A stretch of DNA of 64,000 nt from a virus (lineage: Duplodnaviria > Caudoviricetes): the IMG/VR virus record IMGVR_UViG_3300037418_002116, one strand, 5' to 3'. Position 1 is the stretch's first letter. Every line of letters starts with the position of its first letter. Below, piece after piece: positions 49,537 to 59,429 of this stretch. The notes below the pieces were generated by a model. The model made no database searches. It saw only the letters and a program-made list of their open reading frames with translations, and was not told where the DNA came from. The position numbers and the translations under genes were made by a program.

Positions 49537-50937
49537 TTACTTAAAGTTTAGGTTACTGAATTTTTGTAATGTTTGGCCGGGCTTTTGTGGAGCCGCTGTA
49601 TTGGCCACTTTGGAGGTTGGCGGCGATATCGCCTCTTGGATTCCCTGTAGGGGATCATCCAAATCATAATATCGCATCTTTGGAATATCGACGCCAACGA
49701 AGAACATTGGAATATTGTTCTTATGATCATAGCGAGATTTCAATTGCTTGATTAGCAAAAGATTCTGCTTGGCTAAATCTTCTGTCGAGATAAGCGCAGC
49801 CACAAAGTCAGCCGTAAAATTGATGCCAAAAGCTTCGGATGTATCATCGATATCCGGATTCGAATTTGCGTGACCGCCACGGTTAAACTGTGATGCCGAC
49901 ACAATCGGCACGTTCATTTCAACACCAAGGCCCCGCAATTCTTCGGAAATGGCCTTGTAATAGGTGTTGGTGTTCGATATCTGTCCTGCTTTGAAACGAG
50001 TAGATATCAAAATGTTCAGATAGTCAACATAAATTATGTCCGGAACGAAATGTTTTTTCAGGAGAAGTTCATTCAACAAACTTCTAATATGCGTTACGGA
50101 AGCCGACGACGTTGGATATTCCTTGATAACAAGGCGTCCGTGTGTTTTCTTTTTGGCACGGGCGATTCTATCGTCAAAGTAGCTCTTTGAAATCGTTTGA
50201 AGATTCTTGATTTCAATATCGAGGACGTTAGCGTCGATACGCTTGGCGATTTCCTCTTCCTTCATTTCGGCAGTAATATAAAGAACATTCTTGCCGTCTA
50301 TGAGATTGTTCGCAGCCATGTTGCACATGGCCAGCGACTTACCGACGTTCGTTCCCGCCAAAAGCAGATTGAGCGTCTTTTTCGAGAAACCGCCGTTGGT
50401 CACCTTGTCGAGGTAGGCGATGCCGGTAGAGATTTTTTCCTCTTTTCGGTTATAATATTCGTATCGGTCGTCGGCATTCTCGAAATAGTCGTGACCAATG
50501 GTCGTGTCGAAGCCAACCGCCAAGGCTGATGACAGGATATCGGGAATCGCACCCTTGGCCTTATCCTTACTCTTCCCTTCATAGATCGAAATTGCCTCAT
50601 GCAGAGCAATTTCTAGAGCCCGGTCCTTACAAAATTTTTCGGTTGTGGTTAGAAGCCATTCGATTTCCGGAGCCTTGATTTCCTCTTTGACCGTGTTCAT
50701 CACCGTGTCGATATCGGAAAATGTGTCCTCCACAATCGTATTGTCATTCGACATTTCGATCATGAGAGCTTCGACGGTCGGCGGATTGTTGTAATTTTCG
50801 ACGTAGTTTTTGATATGGTGAAAGATCGTTTGTTCACCTTTTGAGACGAAGTATTCCGTTTTCAGGAATGGGGTTACTCGTCTCATGTAATCATCATTAT
50901 CAATCAGACTTTTGATGATGATTTCTGATACTTGCAA
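49537..50937 (-). CDS. 41: Replicative DNA helicase (T4 gp41-like)
   Basis: LAGTNVGKS, IKEYPT, VDYLNI, SASQFNR, DTSEAFG, QLKSRY; TTG start. Confidence 0.95.
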   Translation of the reverse strand: MQVSEIIIKSLIDNDDYMRRVTPFLKTEYFVSKGEQTIFHHIKNYVENYNNPPTVEALMIEMSNDNTIVEDTFSDIDTVMNTVKEEIKAPEIEWLLTTTEKFCKDRALEIALHEAISIYEGKSKDKAKGAIPDILSSALAVGFDTTIGHDYFENADDRYEYYNRKEEKISTGIAYLDKVTNGGFSKKTLNLLLAGTNVGKSLAMCNMAANNLIDGKNVLYITAEMKEEEIAKRIDANVLDIEIKNLQTISKSYFDDRIARAKKKTHGRLVIKEYPTSSASVTHIRSLLNELLLKKHFVPDIIYVDYLNILISTRFKAGQISNTNTYYKAISEELRGLGVEMNVPIVSASQFNRGGHANSNPDIDDTSEAFGINFTADFVAALISTEDLAKQNLLLIKQLKSRYDHKNNIPMFFVGVDIPKMRYYDLDDPLQGIQEAISPPTSKVANTAAPQKPGQTLQKFSNLNFK

Positions 50938-51030: not shown

Positions 51031-52119
51031 TTATTCGGCTGAATTGTTTTCCAATGTATCATCTTCTTCGGATGCTGTCAAGTCCATTTCTTGTGAAGAT
51101 GAACCAAGACTAAAGTAAGCTTTAGCAGCTACTTCAAGCTTTTCAAGAATATCCTGTGTGAAATACTTAGCAGGGTCTTCATTGATATGCTTTTCAAAAT
51201 GCTTTGAACCATCCGGCATTTGATATTGTGTGGAAACTTTCTTGATAATACCGGAAGATGCCGCCAATGGCAGCAAACCGTAATAGCGATCCACACCCTT
51301 TTGGAAGTGGAGCTTGATTGCGATCTTGCGGCCTTCACGGGAGAATCGGGACTTCTGCACGTTCACATGGATGATATTGCCATCATGAACGGTCACGTCC
51401 TTACCACCGATCTTGACCTTTTCGGTATCCTTTTCCTTGGTCAAACCAAGGATGGTCGATGCAGCGTATTCCAGACCGCCACCACCAGCCATTTTCTGTG
51501 GTGCACCATAGCTCATAATGTCGGTATATGAGTGAGCGCATACGAACATTGGGATGTTCAGCTTACCAAGCTTCTGTGTCGCCGTGCGGAACAGTGAGCG
51601 AACGCCTTGCTGCTTGGTCATGTCACGCACATCTTTGCCGTTCAGGCCATCCGTGTCTTCCTTGATCGATGGCAACATGCCAAGCGAATCGAGAACCATG
51701 ATCACACGCTGGCGTTTGTCTTCCGGCAGAGTGCCATAGGCATCCAAAAATTTGAGCGCCTTGGTCTTGAATTCTTCGATGGTTGCCGGTTGCTGAATGA
51801 ACACACGGTCGGGATCGATATCACGACGGAGCAAGAAATCTTCGTCAATGGCAAATTCGGTATCGAAAAAGAGAGCCTGTGCAATCGGATCACTCTGCAA
51901 AAGAGCTTTGACGGCTGACATGGCCAAGTAGGTCTTGCCTACACCCGCCTTTGAGTGGACGGCGGTAATTCTGTTGTTTGGAATGCCGCCCCATATGGAT
52001 GTTGAAACAGCGGCGTTTAGGATGTATGAACCGGTATCGAGAAATCCGGTAGTGACGACTGGACCAGAATATTCGGGGTCAGCCTCTTGAATAAGCTTAA
52101 GAAAGGACTTGTCCTTCAA
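51031..52119 (-). CDS. uvsX: UvsX RecA-like recombinase
   Basis: DTGSYILNAAVS..IWGG, GVGKT, FFDTE, LDSLGML, MAGGGG..YAAS; TTG start. Confidence 0.95.
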   Translation of the reverse strand: MKDKSFLKLIQEADPEYSGPVVTTGFLDTGSYILNAAVSTSIWGGIPNNRITAVHSKAGVGKTYLAMSAVKALLQSDPIAQALFFDTEFAIDEDFLLRRDIDPDRVFIQQPATIEEFKTKALKFLDAYGTLPEDKRQRVIMVLDSLGMLPSIKEDTDGLNGKDVRDMTKQQGVRSLFRTATQKLGKLNIPMFVCAHSYTDIMSYGAPQKMAGGGGLEYAASTILGLTKEKDTEKVKIGGKDVTVHDGNIIHVNVQKSRFSREGRKIAIKLHFQKGVDRYYGLLPLAASSGIIKKVSTQYQMPDGSKHFEKHINEDPAKYFTQDILEKLEVAAKAYFSLGSSSQEMDLTASEEDDTLENNSAE

Positions 52120-52602: not shown

Positions 52603-52862
52603 CTTGTCAGTGCCAGAAATTCCTTGATCTTCTTTTCCAATGTCTCTGTTCTGTTCGGCCAATAGATATAGTCATCCTTCCCGGTTGAATGAAGATTGGC
52701 GAGCAAAGGCATCACCAATTCTTCAATCTTTTTTAAACGATCTTTGTATTCTTCAATAGTCACTGTTTGTTCCTCCACCACACTCTTTTGCGTGGTGGAG
52801 AAACCGAAATCGTTCTGTGTAGAGTAATCTTTGATTATGGAATTGATATCCGAAACAGCCAT
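52599..52862 (-). CDS. Conserved T4-like hypothetical protein
   Basis: DFGFST...LLANL...YIYWPNR; TAATG coupling to the polymerase. Confidence 0.8.
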   Translation of the reverse strand: MAVSDINSIIKDYSTQNDFGFSTTQKSVVEEQTVTIEEYKDRLKKIEELVMPLLANLHSTGKDDYIYWPNRTETLEKKIKEFLALTR

Positions 52863-55393
52863 TAAACCCAGAGTCCTTCCAATGTACTAATCTCTTCCTC
52901 TCGCCAGCCAATGACCTTGTTCATTGTTTGCACCGGACCCAAGAAAGTCTTTTCAAATTGTACGTCATAATCTATATATTCGTCCAAACCCAATTCCGGA
53001 GGAAGAGAGCGTGGCGCACAGATGACGTTTTCACCAATTGGGTTCGGTAGTTTCAAATAGCACTGCTTGATCTTTTCGCCTTCGAAGATAGGTTCGACTT
53101 CCAAAAGACCGTGCTTGGCCACGTAATGATTGTACAGAAGCGCACCACGCACGTGCATGGGCACCGCAACACCCTTTGTTCGGTTGTAAATGAAGGTTCT
53201 ATCACCATACTTATCCAAGCCCTTACAACCCTTGGGAGCCGCAACCTCTTCAAAAGGCAGAGTGTAGAATTCTTCCCTAACTTTTTTGACGAAATCACGC
53301 ATGGTGGCTTCGTCTTTTTTCAGAACAATCTCATAGTATGCTTTGAGCTTGTTTCTACAAAATTCCGGAGTGGTTGTCTTGACGCCTTCCAATCCGGTGA
53401 TTTCAATAGAAGGCTTGTCGTATTTGATCTTTTCGTTAGCCAGAACGTGATAAAGATATCTCTTCTTCGCCTGAATAACCATCGTATCGCAGATTTTCTC
53501 TTGCTTCATGAAGAGCTTATCTTGATACGAATTCATCATTTTGCCGACTTCCTTGAAGGCGACATCCAACGCAATCTTTTGGATTTTTTCTTCTGCAAAT
53601 TTGATAAGGAAATCTACAATTTTATCCTTATCGGTTAAGCCAAGCTTTTGGATGAACGGATCAAAATTCACAATGCAAGAGTCGGTATCGGAAGCGATAA
53701 CCCAATCCAGATCGAAACCCGTGATTTTGTTCATGTAACCATTAATCGCTCTTTCAGCGGCCTTAATGATCATTTGACCAAATTTGGTGATCGACTCCGC
53801 AATGCGAAGGTCATAGAAGCGGAACCCCTTGTTTCCGGACGCTCCATACAAAGCATTGATCGAAATTTTCTTGTTCTGTTGAAACACGTCGTATTTCAGA
53901 ACTTCACTTTCAAGCTTGGCAATCAGCGCCTTGTCTTTTACAGCCTTGGCGTGTTGTAGATCGTCCTTTGCCTTGTTCATGAGCTTCTTATATTTTTGAC
54001 GATCATCAAAGAAGCTTTGGACGATTTCAACCATGAAGGACGTGAAATTTCTGGTGAATGTCACACCAGATGCCGACATGGAGAGATTGTTCTGTTTTAA
54101 ATACTCTTCGTAGCCATGCGATTGTCCTAGAAGCAGAGCGTCGAGCGACACGTCCAGTGTGTCACGGATGGTATCCGGGCCGATGTTCGCTTGTAGGTAG
54201 ATCGATGGATACAGGGACGTGATATCGAAGCCCATGACCCATTTGTGGCGCTTGGGTTCGGGTTCCTTGACCAGAGCGCCCATGAACTGGCCTTCGTCGC
54301 CAGTCTCTTCAATTTTGGTAATCGGAACGATAATGTCACGATCTTTGAGATATCCATAGATGATGGAATCCCAAAGCTTCGTCGGCATGAAACATTCAGA
54401 CATATTGATCTTGGCAGAATATGCCATATTGTAGATCAATCGCAAAATGTTCAACTTACTTTCCATTCGTTGAACAAGATTGGCGTCTTTGATGTTGTAC
54501 TCATAGAAAAGTTGTGGATTCTGTTCATACAGTCCGGCGAGCGAACCATATGCCTTGTAATCCACCTTCTTTTCACCAAGAACGACATGCGCAACGGTAT
54601 CGAGCTTGTTATCGTCTGGATTTAGGTGTGGAGGACGGAACTTTTTGAAGGAAAGCAGATAATCAAGATCGATGATACCATAGATATCAAAAATTTCGAT
54701 TTCCTTGCCACGATAGGATTTGATGTTTCGTGGTTTGATGATTCCCCATGGCGACAAACGCTTCGCCCAACTCCAACCAAGCACCGCTGTTATGCGTCGA
54801 ATCATGTAGGGCAAGTCGAAGGCGGTCGTATTCCAGCCGGACACGGCGTCCAAGGCGAGCTTTTCCCACACCTTGACGAAGTGCCGAAGCATCTCGTATT
54901 CATTCTCAAACCAGAAAAACGTCGTGCCATCCGGAGCCTTGAAATCCTTCATGCCCCAGAGATACGTTTTGTCGCCAACCACCAGACCGATTGCGGTCAC
55001 TTCCTTGGTCGCTTGGCCTTCTTCCGAGTGCCCGCCTCTCGAATCGGTTTCGATATCGATAAAGCCGGTCTTAATCAGACTGTCGTCATAATCGATTTCA
55101 TCGGGAAACTCTTCATGGATGAAGGCATTAACCCAATTCTGTTGTCCATAAACTTGGAAATTTGCAGCGGCTTCGAAATTTTTCAGGAAATCTCGGGCCT
55201 TGCCAATCGATGCAAATTTGATTGGAGCAAGGGATACACCATGGTATGATTTCCGAATGGCGTTTTCTGCTTTGGAAGGCGTATAGAGAGTTGGCTGATA
55301 TTTCAGGCGCTTCTTAAATGGTTTGCCGTCTCTATAGCCACGAACAAGAATGTCATCGAACTGCTGTTCGACTTTCGTATAGAACGTTGAAAT
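52862..55393 (-). CDS. 43: Family B DNA polymerase (T4 gp43-like), ATT start
   Basis: DIET exonuclease motif, FDITSLYPS, KISINALYG, ASDTDS, KKRY; frame open 131 codons upstream of the tracked start with no ATG/GTG/TTG; GGAG, 7 nt, then ATT gives MSTFYTKV...VRGY..G...KY.PTLY. Confidence 0.93.
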   Translation of the reverse strand: MSTFYTKVEQQFDDILVRGYRDGKPFKKRLKYQPTLYTPSKAENAIRKSYHGVSLAPIKFASIGKARDFLKNFEAAANFQVYGQQNWVNAFIHEEFPDEIDYDDSLIKTGFIDIETDSRGGHSEEGQATKEVTAIGLVVGDKTYLWGMKDFKAPDGTTFFWFENEYEMLRHFVKVWEKLALDAVSGWNTTAFDLPYMIRRITAVLGWSWAKRLSPWGIIKPRNIKSYRGKEIEIFDIYGIIDLDYLLSFKKFRPPHLNPDDNKLDTVAHVVLGEKKVDYKAYGSLAGLYEQNPQLFYEYNIKDANLVQRMESKLNILRLIYNMAYSAKINMSECFMPTKLWDSIIYGYLKDRDIIVPITKIEETGDEGQFMGALVKEPEPKRHKWVMGFDITSLYPSIYLQANIGPDTIRDTLDVSLDALLLGQSHGYEEYLKQNNLSMSASGVTFTRNFTSFMVEIVQSFFDDRQKYKKLMNKAKDDLQHAKAVKDKALIAKLESEVLKYDVFQQNKKISINALYGASGNKGFRFYDLRIAESITKFGQMIIKAAERAINGYMNKITGFDLDWVIASDTDSCIVNFDPFIQKLGLTDKDKIVDFLIKFAEEKIQKIALDVAFKEVGKMMNSYQDKLFMKQEKICDTMVIQAKKRYLYHVLANEKIKYDKPSIEITGLEGVKTTTPEFCRNKLKAYYEIVLKKDEATMRDFVKKVREEFYTLPFEEVAAPKGCKGLDKYGDRTFIYNRTKGVAVPMHVRGALLYNHYVAKHGLLEVEPIFEGEKIKQCYLKLPNPIGENVICAPRSLPPELGLDEYIDYDVQFEKTFLGPVQTMNKVIGWREEEISTLEGLWV

Positions 55394-55417
55394 ATGGGGA
55401 CTCCGAATGAATGGTCT

Positions 55418-55487
55418 ATTATATAGAATCTCGCTCTTCGAGTCAAGCGAAACAATCTATTGACTTCTGTATGATTTTGATTATATT
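55418..55487. promoter_or_regulatory. Divergent sigma70-type promoter pair
   Basis: Minus: TTGACT (55441-55446), 17 nt, TATAAT (55418-55423); plus: TTGACT (55460-55465), 16 nt, TATATT (55482-55487). Confidence 0.8.
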
Positions 55488-55510
55488 AATTATGAATATG
55501 GAGAGAGAAC

Positions 55511-55711
55511 ATGGATGTAATGTTGATGGATGATGCAAGGCGCATAGCTCTTGCTGCCGTGGAAGTGAAGTCGGCCAAAGCCTTTCGACAAGCATTGATC
55601 ATGCTTGGCAAGGAAGGCGGCGAACCGGCCATGGCCCAACTTGCCGCAATCAAACTGGCCTTGAAGGAAAAGGACTATTCCTTGGCCGAATCAATCGGAA
55701 ATCGATCATGA
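55511..55711 (+). CDS. Early hypothetical protein
   Basis: GGAGAG RBS, first gene after the plus-strand promoter. Confidence 0.75.
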   Translation: MDVMLMDDARRIALAAVEVKSAKAFRQALIMLGKEGGEPAMAQLAAIKLALKEKDYSLAESIGNRS

Positions 55712-56109
55712 AACGCAATGATGTGGTAATGATCGCCAAGCCAGATTTATACCGACTCTATGGGCGCATCGTGCGCATCATTGACGATAAGGCTTTGTGG
55801 ATATGTTGCGGTTTACACATCCATCTCACACCAATTTCAATGCTCGAAAAGGTCGATTATGTCGGCACGTGGGAGTGGTGCCACAGTGATGAAGTGGTCA
55901 ACTATTATCACAAAGATAAGGATGGTTACCCCACGTCATGGGTTCCCCGTTGGTCACGTCCACCGCATTTCCAGTACATGCCTACTTTGCGCAAGCTGAA
56001 ACAGATGGCTTCCCGCTATCACAAACGCAATGTCTGGAAAACACCACTCGATTATGAATTTCTAACGAAAGAGGATCAGGATGAAAACAGTGACGGAGAG
56101 GCAGATTGA
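55708..56109 (+). CDS. Hypothetical protein
   Basis: 133 aa, ATGA overlap. Confidence 0.75.
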   Translation: MKRNDVVMIAKPDLYRLYGRIVRIIDDKALWICCGLHIHLTPISMLEKVDYVGTWEWCHSDEVVNYYHKDKDGYPTSWVPRWSRPPHFQYMPTLRKLKQMASRYHKRNVWKTPLDYEFLTKEDQDENSDGEAD

Positions 56110-56248
56110 AAAGGCACTCGAATGGATGAAGAATCATCCGGAAAAGGGTTCATCCGTCTCTGAACGGGCACAACAAGCCTCTTGGCGCTTTCATGTCGAT
56201 CAAATAGACCTATTGGAAGCATGGAGAATTAAGAACGGGGGCAGTTAG
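56081..56248 (+). CDS. Small hypothetical protein (55 aa)
   Basis: GAGG RBS; MKTVTERQIEKALEWMKNHPE... Confidence 0.6.
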   Translation: MKTVTERQIEKALEWMKNHPEKGSSVSERAQQASWRFHVDQIDLLEAWRIKNGGS

Positions 56249-56791: not shown

Positions 56792-56976
56792 TACAATTCT
56801 TCGTCTTCCTGAATTGCTTCAAGCGGCGAATAATCTTCGTTATAGTAATCATCCCAATGTTCGGGAGCGCCATAACGAGCGATGGTTTCTGCCGAAAGGC
56901 CATAGACAGCTTCCATAATTTCATGGAGTTCAGTCAGCCAATTGGCGAAATCGTTTGTGTGGAGGGTCGTGGTCAT
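56776..56976 (-). CDS. Small acidic hypothetical protein
   Basis: 66 aa, ATGA overlap with regA. Confidence 0.7.
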   Translation of the reverse strand: MTTTLHTNDFANWLTELHEIMEAVYGLSAETIARYGAPEHWDDYYNEDYSPLEAIQEDEELYWEAA

Positions 56977-57425
56977 TGTGTAGTCACCTGTTTTGATTTT
57001 CCGATTGTATATTTTGCCGTCAAGGTCCAGTCCTTCTTTTCTTTGTAGGAAATAACCTTGATCTTCCCAAGCGGGCAGACCGGCTCTTTTGTCTTTTCGG
57101 GCTCAACGATCTTGATCAATCCCCATTGTGCCAAGAGGTTGGCAATCGCATTGCGACGGGCTAGATCGTCTTCCGAGAAATTCGTTGGCTTTCCATCCAA
57201 CAAGAACATTTCCTTGAAATGAACCAAGGCGTATTTTCCCTGCTTATGCAGGATGTGGCAGGATTGAAACAACTCTTTCTTGGTAGAGGAAGCGGAAGCT
57301 ACGCCGATTCTGGTAAGAGTTTCTTTTACTTTCAAAAAGTTATCCGGTTCCGGAAGTTCAATCCACACAAAATTTTCAGTTACATTACTGTAATCTTTTT
57401 GTTCTGGTACATTCTCTGTAGTCAA
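56973..57425 (-). CDS. regA: RegA translational repressor
   Basis: PDNFLKVKETLTRIG, LFQSCHILHKQGKY..VHFKE, RRNAIA.LL.QWGL, KYTIG; TTG start. Confidence 0.96.
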   Translation of the reverse strand: MTTENVPEQKDYSNVTENFVWIELPEPDNFLKVKETLTRIGVASASSTKKELFQSCHILHKQGKYALVHFKEMFLLDGKPTNFSEDDLARRNAIANLLAQWGLIKIVEPEKTKEPVCPLGKIKVISYKEKKDWTLTAKYTIGKSKQVTTQ

Positions 57426-57435
57426 TAGTATTTCC

Positions 57436-57810
57436 TTATTTCGCTCCCCCTTGGTCGAGGGAATCCATTAAATTTTTCAATTCAGTTTCAGTCAATATAT
57501 CCATAATTTCCACCGCCCTATCATAGCGAATGCCAAGCTTTTGTGCCAAAAGGACGGTATCAGCGTCTCTTTGCGGCTTGACCCACTTACTAAACCGACG
57601 TTTCTTAGACGTGGCATAATAAAGGAATTCATAATGTTGTTTTGCAGAAATTTCCGGGCACATGTTCAACTCGTTAGCGAGGAATATCGTGTCGGGAAAA
57701 AATGAGAAAGCCTTGTTGATAATGTACTCTGAATAATCCTTTTTGTCAATATCTTCGTTGAAGGAATATTCCTTGTCGTTGATGCTCTTGACGAAATCCC
57801 AAGGGTTCAT
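57436..57810 (-). CDS. 62: Clamp loader small subunit (gp62-like)
   Basis: Y..YIINKAFS...DTI..ANELN, QHYEFL...KKRRFSKW.K; TAATG overlap with gene 44. Confidence 0.9.
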   Translation of the reverse strand: MNPWDFVKSINDKEYSFNEDIDKKDYSEYIINKAFSFFPDTIFLANELNMCPEISAKQHYEFLYYATSKKRRFSKWVKPQRDADTVLLAQKLGIRYDRAVEIMDILTETELKNLMDSLDQGGAK

Positions 57811-58742
57811 TATGCGTAGCAATCCGCCATTATTTCTGTCAGCATCGCAGCCGTGTTGATTTCACGGTTCGATACGAACGCATTCTGGTAATCATACTTT
57901 GAAAGAATGAGAATCAGATATGGGATTTTTTCCGGTTGGATGGAAGCTGGAATCTGATTGTACAAGTCTTGGATGAACAATGAGAAATCCAGATCGGCAT
58001 TTTCCGCTACCCATGTGCGCATATCCTGAAACTTCTGTGATTTCAGAATCTTGATCACGTCGGCGGCACTCGACTTTTGCGAGAGGATACCGGCATCAAT
58101 AGGTCCAGTCTTGGCATATTTTTGAAGCTGATTGATCGTCTTGCGAAGATCAGGGAAGTTTTTGTTGACAAGGCCAGCGACCGCCTTGATATCGTGCTGA
58201 ACGTTTTCCGCCACCAGAATGTCACGAATGCGACGAACAGCGCCTTTCAGAAGCTCGGGCTTTTCATCAGCCGGAAAGACGAAATCCACCGTAGCGCAAC
58301 GGCTCTTCAACGGATCGATGATCCGATTTGAAAAGTTGCAAGTCAGAATGAAACCACAATTCACGGAATATTCTTCCATGAAGTTTCGCAGCGCCGGTTG
58401 GAACGAATTCGGGTTCAAATAATCCGCTTCGTCAAGGATCACGACCTTGCGGGAGTCACCGAAAACCGAAATGGTGGAGGCGAACTGCAAAATGTCGTTT
58501 CGCAGTGTGTCGATGCCGTTCGACATAGAGCCGTTGATAACGGTATAGTCGATACCCATTTCTTGGCACATCGCCTTGGCAACCGTCGTCTTGCCTGTAC
58601 CGGATGGGCCGGTAAGCAGCAAATCCAACATTTCTCCCGAGGCAACGATTCCGGCAAATTCTTTTTTGATATGAGTAGGCAACACGCAATCTTCAATGCG
58701 TGTTGGACGGTACTTTTCCGTCCACTTTACTTGATTAAGCAA
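57810..58742 (-). CDS. 44: Clamp loader large subunit (gp44-like)
   Basis: WTEKYRP, GPSGTGKT, ILDEAD, SRC; TTG start. Confidence 0.96.
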   Translation of the reverse strand: MLNQVKWTEKYRPTRIEDCVLPTHIKKEFAGIVASGEMLDLLLTGPSGTGKTTVAKAMCQEMGIDYTVINGSMSNGIDTLRNDILQFASTISVFGDSRKVVILDEADYLNPNSFQPALRNFMEEYSVNCGFILTCNFSNRIIDPLKSRCATVDFVFPADEKPELLKGAVRRIRDILVAENVQHDIKAVAGLVNKNFPDLRKTINQLQKYAKTGPIDAGILSQKSSAADVIKILKSQKFQDMRTWVAENADLDFSLFIQDLYNQIPASIQPEKIPYLILILSKYDYQNAFVSNREINTAAMLTEIMADCYA

Positions 58743-59429
58743 TTATATTTCTCCGGAATTATTCGCTTCACATGGAATGATGTATGTCAAATCCATATTC
58801 TTGGACTTGAACGTCAATAGTTTGTTTTTGGAGATAGCCACATCGTATGAGTGCATCAAAATTTTTAAATTTTCGACCTTCACCACATACCGAAATTTTT
58901 GATCGGACTCGCCAATCTTATAGCTCATGCCATCCTGTAGCCCGGCCTTTGCCGCCGCACCTTCCTTCATGTTCACGGTCTTGACATAGATTGACTCGCC
59001 ATCAGCTTCGATGGAAAGCTCTTCATGCGAGTAAAGGCTTACCGCCTTCATGATCGTTTTGAGATTTTCAGCCGTGAATTCGAACGAATAGATCGTCTCT
59101 AGGACGTTTAGATTTTTATCCTTTGGTGGCCAGACAAAGAGGGAAGGATTGCAGTAGCGATACGTCGCTTTGTGCGAACCTTCCTCGATTGTCACTTTGG
59201 TATCGTCAAATGATAGATCAGGGTCTTTGAAAAGAGATAGAATGCCAAGGAACATGGGCAAATTATAAACGCCGCAGTCCTTTGGGAATTCCTCTTTCAC
59301 ATTCGCTTCCGCATACACCACGTTCAATGGCGTGATGATGCGTTGGCGATGACCGGCAAGAAACATGATGGATTGGTTGATAGTCGAAAAATTCTGTAGA
59401 ATTTCCACAGTTTCTTTAGATATTTTCAA
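58743..59429 (-). CDS. 45: Sliding clamp (gp45-like)
   Basis: MKISKETVEILQNFSTINQSI, GVYNLPMFLG.LSLF..P; TTG start. Confidence 0.93.
   Translation of the reverse strand: MKISKETVEILQNFSTINQSIMFLAGHRQRIITPLNVVYAEANVKEEFPKDCGVYNLPMFLGILSLFKDPDLSFDDTKVTIEEGSHKATYRYCNPSLFVWPPKDKNLNVLETIYSFEFTAENLKTIMKAVSLYSHEELSIEADGESIYVKTVNMKEGAAAKAGLQDGMSYKIGESDQKFRYVVKVENLKILMHSYDVAISKNKLLTFKSKNMDLTYIIPCEANNSGEI

Follow-up and report, generated by a model that had tools for sequence, protein, structure and literature searches.

A T4-type DNA polymerase gene with a probable AUU start codon in a subclade of soil phages

The polymerase gene and its 5′ region

The window, that is, the whole stretch of 64,000 nucleotides that was analysed (IMG/VR record IMGVR_UViG_3300037418_002116), carries a gene for a T4-type family B DNA polymerase (gp43), as its domains, motifs, N-terminus and neighbourhood all indicate (Table 1). 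The product contains the Pfam domains DNA_pol_B (PF00136, 2e-26) and DNA_pol_B_exo1 (PF03104, 2.7e-16), the latter a 3′-5′ exonuclease domain, matches the RB69 gp43 structure 1clq over three stretches (6e-102), and has in its palm region a DTDS motif that varies little or not at all in the clade alignment. PHROG matches to gp45, gp44, gp62, RegA, UvsX and a gp41-type helicase flank the gene and make up a T4-like replisome neighbourhood, in which 45-44-62-regA lie upstream of gene 43 and uvsX and 41 downstream.

Table 1. Features of the polymerase gene and its 5′ region, in coordinates of the window
Feature	Position	Strand	Evidence or remark
gp43-type family B DNA polymerase CDS, 843 codons plus stop, counted from ATT	52862..55393	-	Pfam, RB69 1clq, tblastn
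First in-frame canonical start, GTG, codon 132, without Shine-Dalgarno sequence	54998..55000	-	ATG/GTG/TTG ORF call begins here
ExoI motif D-I-E, residues 113-115	55049..55057	-	Invariant in clade alignment; aligned to RB69 D114-I-E116
Predicted mRNA hairpin GUCGAAC-AGCA-GUUCGAU, +22 to +39 from AUU	55355..55372	-	Predicted fold; tentative
ATT, proposed initiation codon	55391..55393	-	Sole near-cognate in-frame triplet at Shine-Dalgarno working distance
Shine-Dalgarno GGAG, 7 nt 5′ of ATT	55401..55404	-	CGGAGT and equal spacing kept in relatives G001 and G002
Sigma-70-type promoter TTGACT-17-TATAAT	55418..55446	-	11/12 consensus matches
In-frame TAG closing the frame 5′, beyond the -35 box	55457..55459	-	Sequence

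As the preliminary description had stated, the polymerase frame is open from a TAG upstream of the promoter to GTG 55000, and no ATG, GTG or TTG occurs in between, over 152 codons. A start-less opening of more than 60 codons is found in this ORF only among the 106 ORFs in the window; the runner-up has 58 such codons, and these overlap the gene upstream of it. ATG, GTG and TTG account for 7.2% of the polymerase's remaining codons, at which rate the probability of finding none in 130 codons is ~6e-5. Because the stretch is unique among the 106 ORFs and has so low a probability, it exceeds what chance would give. Codons 2-131 contain no in-frame canonical start codon in the window, the outgroup mean being 3.5 and only 1 of 125 outgroups having none. 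Depletion of canonical codons downstream of a weak start was considered as a trait of the clade and ruled out, as the relatives G002 and G003 have five each.

The GGAG and the ATT stand exactly where the preliminary description had placed them, separated by the spacer TCCCCAT, and the promoter is 25 nt upstream of the ATT. Judged from the promoter, transcription is predicted to begin at ~55412, which would leave a 5′ UTR of ~19 nt. Translation from the ATT yields (M)STFYTKVEQQFDDILVRGY, and the earlier claim that this is the usual gp43 N-terminus is borne out: F3 aligns to F3 of RB69 gp43 in 1clq (query residues 3-148 against RB69 residues 3-151), residue 1 pairs with Met1 of cyanophage gp43 in a full-length tblastn alignment, and an M-x(1-2)-F-Y-T N-terminus is common to outgroup gp43 loci. 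The explanation that we favour, and consider highly probable, is that AUU 55393-55391 is the codon at which translation of the phage DNA polymerase begins. On its sequence, the gene would belong among those with a natural AUH start, having an AUH codon (AUU, AUA or AUC) behind a Shine-Dalgarno sequence and no canonical alternative giving the conserved protein.

An N-terminally shortened polymerase, starting at GTG 55000 or at another canonical codon downstream, is the product of an ORF call for the window that admits only ATG, GTG and TTG, and public calls for the relatives also begin at downstream canonical codons. Such a start is nevertheless extremely unlikely. It would forfeit the N-terminal domain, which is conserved, together with the ExoI D-I-E, which lies upstream of GTG 55000; no Shine-Dalgarno sequence precedes this GTG; and the first canonical codon of the three relatives varies in position (codons 57, 28 and 43). 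The 131 upstream codons are, moreover, under purifying selection (dN 0.093, dS 0.876 and hence dN/dS ~0.1 over codons 2-131 between the window and G001). This ratio, the alignment to RB69 and the position of D-I-E uphold the earlier assignment of these codons to the N-terminal domain and the first exonuclease motif, and their conservation contradicts a protein start at 55000, which had been named there as the opposing outcome.

The same N-terminus might also be reached by other routes, if ribosomes shifted frame after starting at a canonical codon out of frame, if translation were coupled to that of an upstream gene, or if it began at a second in-frame ATT (55408-55406), five codons 5′ of the proposed one. 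The presence of that triplet in the window speaks for such a route, as does, in G003, a short ORF that begins with ATG in another frame and overlaps the polymerase start (L004 1470-1520). We regard these routes as very improbable. No frame contains an ATG, GTG or TTG between the predicted transcription start and +36; the neighbouring gene on the upstream side is divergent and thus offers nothing for the polymerase to couple to; and ATT 55408, which lacks a Shine-Dalgarno sequence, would be ~5 nt into the predicted mRNA. In G003, the codon immediately preceding ATC ATT is a TAA, which closes the frame there, and the short ORF is not conserved.

Start codons in related phages

Three relatives (G001, G002 and G003), whose polymerases are 62-93% identical at the protein level, likewise have no canonical start. 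The start region reads GGAG-7nt-ATA in G001 and GGAG-7nt-ATA-ATT in G002, where in-frame TAG codons close the frame 7 codons upstream; in G003 the TAA is followed by ATC-ATT, with CAGG 6 nt before the ATC. Promoters occupy the equivalent place in G002 (TTGACA-17-TATAGT) and G003 (TTGACA-17-TAATGT). In the tree, nine members form one subclade (support 100/98), the sister of which, P0006, starts with Met. The start was read at the DNA level in four of the nine (this phage, G001, G002 and G003), and the start codons of P0003 and P0005-P0009 were taken from protein calls only. The P0005 protein has Ile-Ile at the conserved start place, and P0003, P0122, P0007 and P0008 are N-truncated gene calls. 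Every public gene call in the subclade is truncated or over-extended at its 5′ end, six being cut by ~43-62 residues and one extended by 25.

Across 123 distinct gp43 loci, the aligned N-terminus carries ATG in 110, TTG in 7, GTG in 3 and no canonical start in 3; these last three are clade members, and none of the 120 distinct outgroup loci lacks such a codon. A comparison of the codon in related phages, which had been proposed as a check, therefore agrees with the ATT reading, with ATA in G001, ATA-ATT in G002, ATC-ATT in G003, Met in the sister group and canonical codons throughout the 120 outgroup loci. Cultured relatives of the polymerase found by tblastn are all less than 60% identical, and blastn against cultured phages gave no match. 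A scan of metagenome contigs found relatives of at most 43% identity among the matches listed, and genome contig scans found nothing.

The window is a metagenome assembly, and a single base change (G to T) would give such a picture, with ATG as the true codon or, if the mutation were recent and inactivating, a pseudogene. A sequencing or assembly error or an inactivating mutation of this kind is, in our assessment, exceedingly improbable, since three different Ile codons occupy the site in three independently assembled relatives and the 843-codon frame is intact, with the low dN/dS given above. Six further runs contain 0.99-1.00 of the stretch's sampled words. A contig from another soil run (X7), a run without a flag as a possible source and the only one among the runs compared (X7-X10) to cover the start region, spans 55126-55700 and shows 0 differences. 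Among the sequencing runs listed as containing the stretch, there are no RNA runs with the region. The AUH codons of the relatives, the canonical codons of the sister and outgroups, the purifying selection and the exact X7 match together indicate that the start is real and conserved. As ATT, ATA or ATC has been retained at the equivalent spot in the closest relatives, the ATT start is almost certainly an inherited feature that gene finders have missed, and not an error.

Initiation at AUU and comparison with known systems

In the mechanism that we propose, the near-consensus sigma-70 promoter would give a short early mRNA with the short leader described above. The 30S subunit would bind GGAG and so place the AUU, 7 nt downstream, in the P site, where the initiator tRNA would read it as a near-cognate codon, giving an fMet-Ser-Thr-Phe-Tyr N-terminus. 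An initiator tRNA of the phage's own for reading AUH was considered and rejected; in the tRNA(CAT) of the window, U1:A72 is paired and the three G:C pairs of the anticodon stem are missing, which marks it as an elongator type.

AUU, AUA and AUC are codons that IF3 rejects. Owing to this rejection and to the poor initiation of these codons in E. coli, the weak codon behind a strong promoter most likely keeps synthesis of the polymerase low. The E. coli values are 1-2% of AUG, which may not hold in the phage's host, and infC and pcnB are the only confirmed AUU starts in that species (10.1101/063800). A low yield from AUU is not guaranteed, since an AUA mRNA with an optimised initiation region can equal the activity of AUG in vitro (PMC5499595). 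Polymerase synthesis may also depend on the initiation state of the host (IF3, ppGpp and nutrients), and nutrient limitation and ppGpp are known to strike non-AUG mRNAs hardest (PMC5499595). A tie between polymerase dose and initiation fidelity or IF3 is thus plausible by analogy with work in E. coli (10.1101/063800; PMC5499595).

The gene resembles infC and pcnB of E. coli in having an in-frame AUU (AUC in some infC) behind a Shine-Dalgarno sequence with no canonical alternative, and in that this start is phylogenetically conserved on a dose-sensitive gene (10.1101/063800; PMC5499595). It differs from them in encoding a phage replicative polymerase and in that all three AUH codons occur among its relatives; a feedback loop is not apparent either, since the polymerase is not an initiation factor. 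Laboratory changes of AUG to AUA or AUU cited in PMC5499595 include an AUA mutant of T4 rIIB with ~15% yield at 25 °C and an AUH mutant of the phage HB-3 murein hydrolase with 5-7.5% yield, and, as reported there, AUH can initiate phage proteins at lower yield. Those are engineered or selected mutants, whereas the state described here is natural and kept across a clade. In our literature search, no published case of gene 43 with a non-canonical start came up.

In T4 and RB69, gp43 represses its own translation through an upstream hairpin, and some T4-like phages do not have this control (PMC3014915). The gene and its replisome neighbourhood are shared with the present case, and here, too, the polymerase level would be set at translation initiation (PMC3014915). 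In the mechanism proposed above, the weak codon would take over the task that the upstream autogenous operator performs in T4 and RB69. The T4/RB69 type of translational operator was not found in the leader of this gene: the predicted ~19-nt 5′ UTR is unstructured in the centroid fold and has no upstream hairpin, and an Rfam scan of the leader gave no family near threshold. The sole conserved hairpin lies instead in the coding sequence, from +22 to +39. It appears in both predicted folds (MFE and centroid) in 4/4 genomes, with 28/28 cells paired and one compensatory C:G to U:A change. In a shuffle test on the four sequences, 106 of 500 shuffles matched this result, which is not significant, and an equally stable fold occurs at this place in 13-25% of outgroup genes, so that the energy of the hairpin is not unusual. 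On the strength of the shuffles and the outgroup fold energies, we dropped the idea that this hairpin and the AUH start belong specifically together.

The history that we envisage is that an ancestral ATG changed to ATH once, at the base of the nine-member soil T4-like subclade, and that ATH has since been kept, drifting among ATT, ATA and ATC with no return to ATG, GTG or TTG. It is possible, though we think it unlikely, that the AUH start is real and has no regulatory meaning; the change would then have been fixed by drift, a strong promoter and an adequate Shine-Dalgarno sequence would suffice, and reversion would bring no benefit. The polymerase is needed in small amounts, and the in vitro parity of AUA and AUG within a good initiation region fits this account as well. 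The third position is T, A or C and never G in four or five lineages, a pattern that is not significant alone (~0.3 under neutrality), and neighbouring replisome genes interchange ATG and TTG freely within the four genomes, which shows that start-codon turnover is possible on such a timescale. Against neutrality, the start has been kept across the subclade although identity between its polymerases falls to 54-62% and synonymous sites are saturated, a single transversion could restore ATG, and no non-canonical start is tolerated at the 120 outgroup loci.

Returning to a start under selection, this phage also has TTG starts on uvsX, 44, 45 and regA, and the TTG start of gene 41 is kept in 4/4 genomes. 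The AUH start of gene 43 and the TTG starts of 41, uvsX, 44, 45 and regA might together form a selected regime of weak initiation at the replisome, which would couple the synthesis of replication proteins to the translational state of the host (IF3 occupancy, ppGpp and nutrients). Such a regime would then replace the autogenous gp43 operator of the T4 type in its role, and the +22 to +39 hairpin might serve in it as a new operator. We offer this wider proposal tentatively and consider it doubtful as a whole.

Meaning for annotation and for phage replication

For the window, a gene call restricted to ATG, GTG and TTG drops 131 residues, and the catalytic motif ExoI is lost with them. Where homology demands it, ATT, ATA and ATC should be permitted as starts by gene finders and in phage annotation pipelines. 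Conserved in a clade and placed on the gene of an essential enzyme of phage replication, a weak start of this kind provides a natural system in which to ask whether such a codon sets dose or senses host physiology, and it would offer an alternative to the classic autoregulation of T4 gp43.

Anatomy of the gene 43 start site

The product read from the ATT codon is an 843-residue family B DNA polymerase, which matches Pfam DNA_pol_B and DNA_pol_B_exo1 and, with E = 6e-102, the RB69 gp43 structures. Gene 43 lies in a T4 replisome layout: gp45, gp44, gp62 and RegA are encoded on its upstream side, and UvsX plus a gp41-type helicase follow it. The stretch was found in soil and rhizosphere metagenome runs, and no relative closer than 60% identity was returned when cultured phages were searched with the polymerase by tblastn. 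The N-terminal alignment is collinear, with residues 3-148 lying on RB69 gp43 residues 3-151 (TFYTKVEQ over EFYLTVEQ), and thus the ATT codon is the counterpart of RB69 Met1. In the tblastn search, residue 1 of a cyanophage gp43 also aligned with residue 1 of the window protein (38% identity). The preliminary description had recognized here the usual gp43 N-terminus, had assigned the N-terminal domain and first exonuclease motif to the 131 codons above GTG 55000, and had reported a frame open from an upstream TAG without ATG, GTG or TTG, and GGAG 7 nt before ATT; each of these claims is borne out by the alignments and coordinates (Table).

Table. Features of gene 43 and start codons of neighbouring replisome genes
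Feature	Coordinates	Strand	Remarks
Gene 43 frame	stop end 52862; open up to TAG 55459-55457	minus	window sequence
ATT, proposed start codon	55393-55391	minus	gene 43 frame
GGAG (Shine-Dalgarno)	55404-55401	minus	7-nt spacer TCCCCAT to ATT
Promoter TTGACT-17-TATAAT	55446-55418	minus	sigma-70-like; 11/12 consensus positions matched
ExoI motif D-I-E	55057-55049	minus	residues 113-115; upstream of GTG 55000
Hairpin (predicted)	55372-55355	minus	7-bp stem, 4-nt loop; +22 to +39, codons 8-13 of gene 43
Gene 41	49537-50937	minus	TTG in 4/4 genomes (window, G001-G003)
uvsX	51031-52119	minus	TTG in window and G001; ATG in G002 and G003
regA	56973-57425	minus	TTG in window, G001 and G002; ATG in G003
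Gene 44	57810-58742	minus	TTG in window and G001; ATG in G002 and G003
Gene 45	58743-59429	minus	TTG in window and G001; ATG in G002 and G003

GTG 55000, the first canonical codon in frame, stands 152 codons past the TAG. Given the 7.2% frequency of ATG, GTG and TTG in the remainder of the gene, 130 codons free of them have P ~6e-5, and gene 43 is the sole ORF among 106 in the window with more than 60 start-less open codons. Outgroup gp43 genes hold on average 3.5 such triplets in codons 2-131, and just one in 125 holds none. Depletion of these triplets from codons 2-131 (55001-55390, minus strand) was rejected as a trait of the clade, the counts being 0 in the window, 1 in the related genome G001 and 5 each in G002 and G003.

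Transcription is likely to begin near 55412, as predicted from the promoter, so that the 5' UTR would measure some 19 nt; between this position and +36 there is no ATG, GTG or TTG in any frame. The upstream neighbour is divergent (plus-strand promoter 55460-55487, plus-strand ATG 55511), so there is no same-strand upstream gene for coupling. The stretch 55418-55510 consists of back-to-back sigma-70-like promoters, their -35 boxes 14 bp apart, one serving gene 43 and the other a group of small plus-strand ORFs (55511-56248); it is nearly identical in G001, despite a synonymous dS of ~0.9 in the flanking polymerase gene.

Between the window and G001, dN is 0.093 and dS 0.876 over codons 2-131, in the same regime as the remainder of the gene (0.042 and 0.997). 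Since dN is far below dS, the 131 codons are coding and constrained. Synonymous sites are saturated against G002 and G003. From 55000 to 55700, 0.99-1.00 of the sampled words were present in each of six soil or rhizosphere runs, and a contig from X7, a run not flagged as a possible source, spans 55126-55700 with zero differences.

Conservation among related phages

The suggested check of related phage genomes, which covered three from IMG/VR, found AUH (AUU, AUA or AUC) and no canonical codon at the start. G001 (153 kb, gp43 93% identical) has the same promoter and CGGAGT, 7 nt before ATA. G002 (196 kb, 66%) has TTGACA-17-TATAGT and CGGAGT, 7 nt before ATA ATT, with in-frame TAG codons 7 codons upstream, and in G003 (242 kb, 62%) a TAA directly abuts ATC ATT, with CAGG 6 nt before ATC. 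No canonical start occurs before codon 57, 28 or 43, respectively. The occurrence of three different Ile codons in three independent assemblies leaves, in practice, no room for a sequencing error or a recent pseudogene. In G003, a 16-codon out-of-frame ATG ORF (L004 1470-1520) near the predicted transcript 5' end overlaps ATC ATT; it has no counterpart in the window, G001 or G002.

The seven public calls for the protein-database relatives P0002-P0005, P0007, P0008 and P0122 all misplace the 5' end; six lack ~43-62 residues (P0003, P0122, P0007 and P0008 start ~60 residues late) and one runs 25 residues too long, across the promoter region. The P0005 call extends through the site to an upstream ATG, with Ile-Ile immediately ahead of TFFYTKVEQQ. 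These mis-called relatives appear to fit the same picture as the three genomes. P0006 begins with Met (MSHKLEFYTKVE). In a maximum-likelihood tree, all nine members without a canonical start (as read from DNA in four and judged from protein calls in the remainder) form one subclade (support 100/98), sister to P0006 plus P0009 (whole group 100/100). The simplest history would be one ATG-to-ATH change, afterwards retained. Among the matches listed from IMG/VR and metagenomes, 123 distinct gp43 loci with an aligned N-terminus carried ATG (110), TTG (7), GTG (3) or no canonical start (3), the last confined to clade members. In one group of outgroup gp43 loci from IMG/VR (L029, L032, L046-L053, L070), the conserved position is occupied by GTG or TTG ((V/L)K-x-FYTH), after a poor SD-like region.

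Of the replisome genes in the Table, uvsX, regA, 44 and 45 interchange TTG and ATG among the four genomes, and hence start codons turn over in the group. The PHROG alignments place gp45 residue 1 (TTG) at profile position 1 and gp44 residue 3 at profile position 7. Despite such turnover, gene 43 seems never to have regained a canonical start, and its AUH start appears to predate the frequent TTG starts of the window's own lineage and to be retained more broadly. The TTG:ATG ratio of 8:6 in 45-64 kb vs 4:15 in 20-45 kb (counting ORFs of 80 codons or more whose first start is unambiguous) is no more than suggestive.

Leader and initiator tRNA

In T4 and RB69, gp43 acts as translational repressor of its own gene via a hairpin upstream of the start, a control that some T4-like phages do without (PMC3014915). 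A T4-type operator is ruled out here: the predicted ~19-nt UTR leaves no room for it and is unstructured in the centroid fold, and the leader has no Rfam match. The hairpin within the coding region is predicted in all four genomes (28/28 cells paired, with one compensatory C:G to U:A change in G003); its pairing is not distinctive (equalled by 106/500 shuffles) and its stability is ordinary, 13-25% of outgroup genes folding as stably at the same position. The phage tRNA(CAT) (11898-11975, minus strand) was rejected as an initiator, having a paired U1:A72 and an anticodon stem without GGG/CCC, and is an elongator Met or Ile2-like type.

Probable weak initiation and polymerase dose

AUU, AUA and AUC are near-cognate codons that initiator tRNA decodes and IF3 selects against. 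The gene 43 start is solid and conserved, and it shares with the AUU starts of infC and pcnB an AUH codon behind an SD, the lack of a canonical alternative and conservation, features at the sequence level; it would work as they do. These two are the only confirmed AUU starts in E. coli, where AUU, AUA and AUC gave 1-2% of AUG (10.1101/063800), a yield that may differ in the host of the present phage. Values of ~15% for a T4 rIIB AUA mutant and 5-7.5% for HB-3 hydrolase are cited in a further source (PMC5499595), according to which nutrient limitation and ppGpp hit mRNAs with non-AUG starts hardest and AUA is, in vitro, as active as AUG in some contexts.

The best reading is that a weak AUH start behind a near-consensus early promoter sets a low polymerase dose, which may depend on host state; the dose and the role of IF3 we infer. 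A serious rival, possible if rather unlikely, is that the weak start is neutral and merely tolerated. Drift among ATT, ATA and ATC would follow from the functional equivalence of the three codons. No account of a non-canonical gene 43 start turned up in the literature searched. The AUH start is useful for annotation and opens start-codon-based dosage control in a phage replisome to experimental test.
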